Shown piece after piece: positions 63,557-63,877 of a stretch of 64,000 bases of DNA (the stretch's first letter is position 1; every line of letters starts with the position of its first letter). The notes under the pieces were generated by a model. It worked only from the letters and a program-made list of their open reading frames with translations. It did not search any database and had not been told where the DNA came from. The position numbers were made by a program, and so were the translations under genes. The DNA lies in NCBI RefSeq assembly GCF_055900595.2, contig NZ_CM148325.1; one strand, written 5' to 3'.

Positions 63557-63877
63557 TTAATAACCGTCATCGTTAACGCTATCAGGGTAATCGCGCCATA
63601 TTTCATCAGTAAGCGACGGTAGCCCCATTTTTTGTATTGTCCTGTCTGCGGCCTTTCTGACTGTATGAATATCAATACGGCTTTCAGGTATCGGGCGTTT
63701 TGCCTTCCTGATACATTCCCTTGCTCTCATTACTGCAAGCTGTCTGTGACTGTCTTTCTCAAGAGTAATCATCACATCCTGCCACCTTCTGGCAGCACGT
63801 CGCCACAGTCCCCTGCTCTCGAGTTCTTCCGCTGTCGCGTCGCTTATTGTCCGGCTCTTCAGTGTGCTGTTGTTCAT
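63557..63877 (-). CDS. PerC-family transcriptional regulator-like protein
   Basis: 106-aa ORF with ...DATAEELESRGLWRRAARRWQDVM..., resembling the conserved core of PerC/Pch-type activators. Confidence 0.45.
   Translation of the reverse strand: MNNSTLKSRTISDATAEELESRGLWRRAARRWQDVMITLEKDSHRQLAVMRARECIRKAKRPIPESRIDIHTVRKAADRTIQKMGLPSLTDEIWRDYPDSVNDDGY

Follow-up and report, generated by a model that had tools for sequence, protein, structure and literature searches.

The short open reading frame at the right edge of this window (the whole 64,000-nucleotide stretch that was analysed, taken from contig NZ_CM148325.1 of NCBI RefSeq assembly GCF_055900595.2) raises two questions, namely whether it encodes a genuine PerC-type regulator, and what kind of element brought it here. 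A first-pass annotation had proposed a 106-aa reading frame with the conserved PerC-type core, of the kind carried by prophages or plasmids and activating virulence regulons, possibly outside the window. The gene call holds exactly: the frame occupies positions 63557..63877 on the minus strand, which the annotation had left unstated, begins with ATG, encodes 106 aa and has its stop codon within these coordinates. The Pfam search that the annotation had suggested gave a clear match to PF06069 (PerC), at E=5.9e-28 and 97.4 bits against a gathering cut-off of 22.6, and the match covers the full model (residues 11-99 of the protein, positions 2-89 of 90). The protein also matches PHROG 994 at E=3.6e-28, and its PHROG matches are phage ‘transcriptional activator’ families. 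This family match lies far above chance and the frame is confirmed not to be a chance ORF. RefSeq names the same 321 bp ‘PerC family transcriptional regulator’ (WP_001066120.1), and the two ORFs that overlap it, 63632-63919 (plus) and 63481-63675 (minus), have no Pfam match.

Relatives were gathered by an exhaustive search of representatives, in which 116 clusters match at E<=1e-3; a word-indexed protein search gave only 8 close matches. In an alignment (A1) of the window protein and 59 relatives from the exhaustive search, the columns R26, R27, A28 and W32 are invariant and all are kept in the window protein, as are nine of the nine nearly invariant columns (D13, A16, L19, E20, G23, R31, C55, M84 and G85). 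The core motif of the family, G-[LF]-[WY]-RRAA-x-RW, is present together with the conserved Cys and the C-terminal M-G, and the 106-aa length and all-helical AlphaFold2 model agree with the size and fold of PerC proteins (~90-110 aa, all-helical). Identity is 87% to an allele from an intact phage satellite (PICI), 48% to an O157 PICI allele, 38% to EcCIMP1_025 and 32% to EPEC PerC. On the basis of sequence comparison, the window perC is a true member of the PerC/Pch family of small regulators.

PICI-homologous DNA at this locus amounts to ~826 bp, from window 63360 to ~64185, flanked by IS66 and IS5 remnants, and perC is its sole intact gene. The features in and beside this scrap are:

63557..63877, minus strand: intact perC-family coding sequence, 106 aa, WP_001066120.1 (ORF, Pfam, invariant residues)
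63884..63887, minus strand: GGGG Shine-Dalgarno-like run, 6 nt upstream of the perC ATG (direct sequence reading)
63895..64000, minus strand: 3' part of a 5'-truncated ssb, continuing off the window to ~64191, with satellite homology stopping at ~64185 (SCU-115 annotation, blastn)
63360..63494, minus strand: ProQ/FinO leftover, ~45 of 194 codons (blastn to L003)
62669..63273, minus strand: decayed IS66-type tnpA pseudogene to the left of the scrap, not part of the satellite (SCU-115 annotation; frameshifted, internal stop)
63527..63549 and 63930-63952, no strand assigned: two copies of an imperfect 23-nt direct repeat bracketing perC (repeat family D5 of L003/L004)

The context was read through the RefSeq annotation of the E. 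coli SCU-115 chromosome (locus L001, 20 kb each side), a chromosome that matches the right end of the window at 100% identity, as do about 46 other complete genomes. In blastn comparison with an intact relative, L003, two abutting pieces survive. The first, L001 20895-21586 (88%), takes in the spacer between perC and proQ, perC itself and the final ~290 bp of ssb, while the second, L001 20761-20895 (93%), is an internal proQ piece that maps to L003 14431-14566, after which the alignment jumps to L003 14939. A 372-bp deletion at 63494 took the proQ start and the first ~118 codons, and the proQ 3' end has been replaced by IS66-related DNA belonging to the decayed tnpA, with NCBIfam IS66 TnpA matches coming from ORFs 63025-63393 and 62669-62929. 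Of the Pfam ProQ model, just the final 39 positions are matched by a 58-aa ORF at 63305-63481, a fragment that RefSeq annotates as a gene, ‘ProQ/FINO family protein’. On the other side of perC, the ssb stump (L001 21296-21592, window-equivalent 63895-64191; 98 aa, WP_045147041.1) stands in RefSeq as a CDS and not as a pseudogene. It is missing about 40 N-terminal codons (OB fold) of the 136-aa SSB, blastn homology ends at L003 15629, and its annotated start, L001 21592-21590, is a non-canonical ATA, beyond which IS5 scrap follows. The perC ATG lies 17 nt past the ssb stop codon, an operon-style spacing. The two-piece 826-bp structure is identical in every island-bearing genome among the matches listed, and therefore arose once and travels with the island. 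A PICI is recognised by its integrase, its alpA gene, a pri-rep module with an origin, att repeats and a length of ~10-15 kb; at the window locus no int, alpA or primase gene adjoins the 826 bp, which are a PICI fragment and not an element.

The direct repeat that brackets perC hints, from sequence, that the gene may have arrived as a cassette at the ssb-proQ junction. The two copies are 78-83% identical in L003 and L004 (14972-14994 and 15374-15396), but only ~61%, by direct count, in the window, where the noisy repeat alignment (A2) makes them weak evidence. The inserted-cassette reading was set aside, the bracketing repeat being convincing in L003 and L004 only. Separately, the downstream copy looks as if the 3' end of ssb (…IPL) had been duplicated and had then degenerated.

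The source of the scrap can be read from its intact relatives. Alleles of perC with 92% DNA identity sit in intact ~10-kb PICIs, in which the gene order is tyrosine integrase, AlpA, Icd-like, DUF4222, D5-type primase/RepA helicase, a small ORF, ssb (136 aa), perC (106 aa) and ProQ/FinO (194 aa), after which come a Nu1-type small terminase in some and capsid and decoration genes in others; the annotated CDS of these relatives include no tail or lysis genes. In L003, Pfam supports Phage_integrase, Phage_AlpA (PF05930, 59 bits), D5_N/Pox_D5, SSB, ProQ and a Nu1-type TerS, iterons at 16106-16281 lie beside the primase gene, and the element is bounded by an att-like 57-nt direct repeat (72% identity, first ~25 nt nearly identical), the copies of which lie 10,238 bp from each other in the interval from clpS to cspD. 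Read from sequence alone, the gene content, iterons and att-like repeats of L003 are those of a Gram-negative PICI, and the architecture of the intact relatives is that of the published Gram-negative PICI and its capsid-forming variant (PMC6092414; bioRxiv 10.1101/2022.09.08.507074). By this homology, the window scrap is derived from a phage satellite of the PICI type.

The position of perC among related satellites is not fixed. An O157:H7 element at phoQ-roxA (L005) shows the ssb-perC neighbourhood and, judged by that position and its gene content, would be EcCIEDL933, with its 48% allele being PchE. A capsid-forming PICI has ssb-proQ without perC, a 51%-identical perC allele lies within an element ordered alpA ... 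DUF927-ssb-proQ-perC, and EcCIMP1 has its perC elsewhere, at the far end of the satellite and not beside ssb; two of the four distant-homologue contexts that were looked up are on contigs too short to inform. Since perC is present or absent, and shifts in order, among similar satellites, it occupies an optional accessory position, and PerC alleles are recognised PICI accessory genes (PMC6092414; PMC11773190).

In enterobacterial PICI-like satellites, the genes for SSB, PerC and ProQ-FinO form a trio that is repeatedly met between the modules for replication and packaging, although their order varies and not all of them are always present (L003 14337-15749; L005 8718-9411; L006 7920-8924; L009 7107-8294), and PerC, cytochrome b562 and ProQ genes are also near one another on a metagenomic contig (L014). 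Of 5426 complete E. coli genomes, 2341 have DNA resembling the ssb and proQ parts. The papers examined were not found to address what a FinO-domain RNA chaperone does in satellites, and an Rfam search of window 62000-64000 matched no family, offering no candidate sRNA partner for the ProQ/FinO remnant. PADLOC gave no defence-system match on PerC and its satellite neighbours bar a negligible BrxA (E=0.005).

The island in which the scrap lies is chromosomal, IS-ridden and mosaic, and contains iucABCD-iutA, sitABCD, sodC, ibrB-like genes, a second amiC, iha, decayed ICE genes and phoX. Past the window edge there follow the 5'-truncated ssb, IS5 scrap, cytochrome b562, a YebF-like gene, decayed LPS genes and an integrase adjoining ynjA. 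The annotation holds no phage structural, lysis or lysogeny genes near perC over 20 kb on each side, within the window or beyond it. The expectation that prophage genes might appear downstream of the window was thus not borne out, and the supposed prophage or plasmid carriage of the gene gives way to an origin in a PICI satellite. All 60 matching places of the perC DNA are chromosomal. The closest plasmid homologue of the window protein is 47.8% identical, and tblastn against 50,697 phage records gave two weak matches only (33-35% identity).

Within the same annotation, the segment L001 22628-28219 (SCU-115 536617-542208) carries cytochrome b562, the YebF-like gene, decayed polysaccharide deacetylase, glycosyltransferase and PEA-transferase genes, and a tyrosine integrase abutting ynjA, and is probably the right end of the island. 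ICE type-IV-secretion pseudogenes (TIGR03757, TIGR03756) adjoin iha at window ~52781-54147 (L001 10182-11548), and the mosaic island also holds these integrative conjugative element remains separately from the satellite scrap.

The 321 bp of perC are present in 51 of 5426 complete E. coli genomes, 49 of the copies being at least 99% identical and two 92%. The genomes that carry the window perC are chicken and human isolates with the aerobactin/sit/iha island, a content that suggests an ExPEC-like background. In at least five genomes the 826-bp scrap coexists with an intact PICI that carries the 92% allele.

Comparison with characterised members of the family sets out what such a protein might do. 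The PerC-like genes of Gram-negative PICIs (EcCIEDL933, EcCICFT073 and the EHEC group 3 pch, pchE) encode, like the window gene, small helical proteins of the same Pfam family, and these alleles share with the intact relatives of the window type a perC placed directly after ssb in an int-alpA-primase satellite. Unlike them, the window copy has been left behind in 826 bp of DNA from which int, alpA and the replication module are missing; its protein has a 10-residue N-terminal extension and represents a different allele from those of EcCIEDL933, EcCICFT073 and pchE. The EcCIEDL933 and EcCICFT073 alleles are reported to be inert on LEE1 (PMC11773190). EcCIMP1_025, from PICI EcCIMP1 of E. coli MP1, resembles the window protein in family, satellite-borne origin and a weak ANR-type similarity, but at 38% identity it is encoded at the far end of its satellite and is a LEE1 repressor in a reporter, repressing LEE1-lux in C. 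rodentium with a strong trans effect (PMC11773190). PchE, the group 3 homologue of O157, represses csgD and curli and raises flagellar expression (PMC6265319; PMC7369912). Its gene shows basal expression that is SOS-independent, and this expression drops, and does not rise, on SOS induction (PMC6265319).

The best-studied members of the family, EPEC PerC (pMAR2) and EHEC PchA/B/C, belong to the same Pfam family as the window protein and have the same core motif, and activate LEE1 through counteracting H-NS (PMC4764244; PMC11773190); it is from this trans-activation of the LEE1/ler promoter that the family takes its name. Pch lifts H-NS/StpA/Hha silencing at LEE1, with no direct Pch-H-NS contact detected (PMC4764244), and group 2 and group 3 pch genes are dispensable for ler expression (PMC6265319). 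EPEC PerC is plasmid-borne and encoded in the operon perABC with the AraC-type PerA, and the pch genes belong to prophages or to regions resembling them (PMC6265319), whereas the window gene, with 32% identity to EPEC PerC at the protein level, has neither context. Activation of a virulence regulon, as the first-pass annotation had it, is not supported by this comparison, the nearest characterised PICI alleles being reported as inert on LEE1 or as repressing it and PchE as repressing csgD and curli.

The AlphaFold2 model of the window protein, run on the family alignment, has a mean pLDDT of 82.5, with 94-97 over residues 11-60, and contains four main helices (14-22, 25-38, 42-59 and 70-83) and a short N-terminal helix, without strands. 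The predicted fold is a four-helix, TPR-like bundle without a helix-turn-helix, although TPR-like matches are generic for small helical proteins. A fold search of BFVD with the window protein returned nothing at E<=0.001, an ANR-named phage protein appearing at a non-significant E=0.79. A further candidate identity was Rpp, the PICI packaging-redirection factor with a solved structure. It was dropped when a sequence search of PDB chains with the window protein found no relative, the best match (ribosomal protein S3, E=0.074) being noise.

Similarity of the PerC core to the ANR family is systematic but below threshold. Residues 15-61 of the window protein align to positions 8-54 of 54 in the NCBIfam ANR model NF033650 at 15.4 bits (E=0.012), under the curated cut-off of 32, so that the protein does not qualify as an ANR member. 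Sub-threshold ANR matches are found in 54 of the 60 PerC-family proteins of alignment A1, with a best E of 3.2e-7, and short PerC-only proteins (48-69 aa) score 16.5-28.2 bits, none reaching the cut-off of 32. The authors of the EcCIMP1 study saw the same weak ANR-type similarity for EcCIMP1_025; PerC was not found mentioned in the ANR papers examined. Like ANR proteins (e.g. Aar of EAEC), the window protein is small and helical, with an alignable N-terminal core, but unlike them it has an extra C-terminal helix and tail. At 106 aa (~12 kDa estimated) it also lies outside the 4.4-9.5 kDa range of ANR proteins (PMC10148876), and no AraC-family gene, the AraC/XylS activator that accompanies ANR genes, is annotated within 20 kb on either side of perC. 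The same source describes ANR proteins as binding AraC-type activators and H-NS (PMC10148876). The sequence similarity suggests that the PerC core and ANR are distant homologues.

Whether the window copy is expressed bears directly on its function. The alpA region of the satellite and its upstream genes are absent from the scrap, and a strict consensus scan of the minus strand over L001 20500-22400, reaching ~1.1 kb upstream of perC, found no sigma70-like promoter, although weak, non-σ70 or read-through transcription may escape such a scan; one terminator-like hairpin is situated upstream of the ssb stump. With the regulatory region of the satellite gone and no such promoter in evidence, expression of perC is doubtful. 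By analogy with the basal, SOS-independent expression of pchE, perC genes may carry a promoter of their own.

The likelihoods attached to the following readings overlap in part and are not meant to add up to one. With reasonable confidence, the locus is best explained as a true PerC-family gene within the remnant of a satellite, probably expressed at a low level or a functional orphan. In the intact relatives, perC stands in a long one-directional block, after the primase/origin module and ssb and before ProQ/FinO and the packaging or capsid genes; here, a fragment of such a PICI is trapped between IS remnants of a mosaic aerobactin/sit/iha E. coli island. By analogy with its relatives, the protein would act in trans, possibly reaching genes outside the window, and would either remodel silencing complexes of the H-NS/StpA/Hha type or bind other regulators. 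Sign and targets would be allele-dependent, Pch and PerC activating, EcCIMP1_025 and PchE repressing. This mode of action is extrapolated from relatives at 32-48% identity. The window copy itself is most likely weakly expressed or silent and carried passively with the island, a view of its current state that follows from the loss of the alpA region and upstream genes and the lack of a detectable σ70-like promoter.

It is also conceivable, though rather unlikely, that perC has been exapted, being kept by selection under a cryptic or IS-derived promoter and tuning curli/csgD, flagella, or the iron-uptake and adhesin genes of the island. An intact ORF with a plausible ribosome-binding site, alone between two truncated neighbours, could have been kept as useful, and dN/dS between the window perC and the intact-PICI allele is 0.38, although this value largely records the time when both alleles still belonged to working satellites. 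Among relatives, PchE affects csgD, curli and flagella when expressed (PMC6265319, PMC7369912; the 48% allele is taken as PchE by position) and EcCIMP1_025 acts strongly in trans on LEE1 (PMC11773190). Nevertheless, the intact ORF is uninformative because 49 copies are at least 99% identical, leaving no time for decay, the chance survival of a 321-bp gene in an 826-bp scrap is not improbable, and the scan described above detected no promoter.

Less likely still is a role for PerC in the satellite life cycle and not in host virulence, by which it would de-silence AT-rich late genes of the PICI or manipulate helper-phage transcription, so that the stranded copy would count only in a genome that also harbours a related intact PICI. 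In several allelic lineages perC is found beside ssb and ProQ/FinO, placed between the modules for replication and packaging, its PHROG matches are to phage activator families, and the five or more genomes with both the scrap and a 92%-allele PICI would provide such co-residence. On the other hand, its absence from similar satellites and its different location in EcCIMP1 are those of an accessory and not a core gene, pchE expression falls on SOS induction (PMC6265319), and no PICI life-cycle phenotype for perC was found in the papers examined.

A more speculative combination, which we regard as improbable, is that PerC proteins are extended ANR relatives by which satellites rewire H-NS- or AraC-controlled transcription, and that the island has domesticated the stranded copy, which alone stayed intact while its neighbours decayed, for control of adhesion, motility or iron uptake. 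Finally, a prophage- or plasmid-borne PerC-type activator of a LEE/ler-type virulence regulon elsewhere in the genome is very improbable, for although the gene is a genuine member of the family of EPEC PerC and EHEC PchABC and lies within a virulence-associated island, all its copies are chromosomal with no prophage or plasmid genes around them, its product is only 32% identical to EPEC PerC, PICI alleles are reported as inert on LEE1 or as repressing it, ler expression does not require the pch genes of groups 2 and 3, its carriers are chicken and human isolates that appear ExPEC-like from their island, and its upstream regulatory region is lost.

The preferred reading, a genuine perC left in a satellite scrap, has a practical consequence: a ‘PerC-like regulator’ in such an island should be taken neither for a LEE-type activator nor for evidence that a prophage lies nearby. 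In this island perC marks a decayed phage satellite, and the nearest characterised alleles repress LEE1 or leave it unaffected. The name of the protein in RefSeq and the existence of PICI-borne PerC alleles are already known. Of specialist interest are the systematic sub-threshold similarity between the PerC core and ANR, and the recurrent ssb / PerC / ProQ-FinO trio in enterobacterial satellites.

Two further insertions distinguish the window from the SCU-115 island, which is otherwise ~99.9% identical, although the two are not fully colinear. Both are IS10 copies, at window 4112-5440 and 54253-55581, which are mutually inverted and 99.7% identical, each with an identical 402-aa transposase ORF and each with its own separate 9-bp target duplication (TGCAGAGCG and TGTTAAGTG); neither is present in the SCU-115 island. 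Judged by the SCU-115 annotation, the second copy splits an SgcJ/EcaC oxidoreductase gene and the first splits iucB, and aerobactin synthesis may therefore have been knocked out in the window strain.
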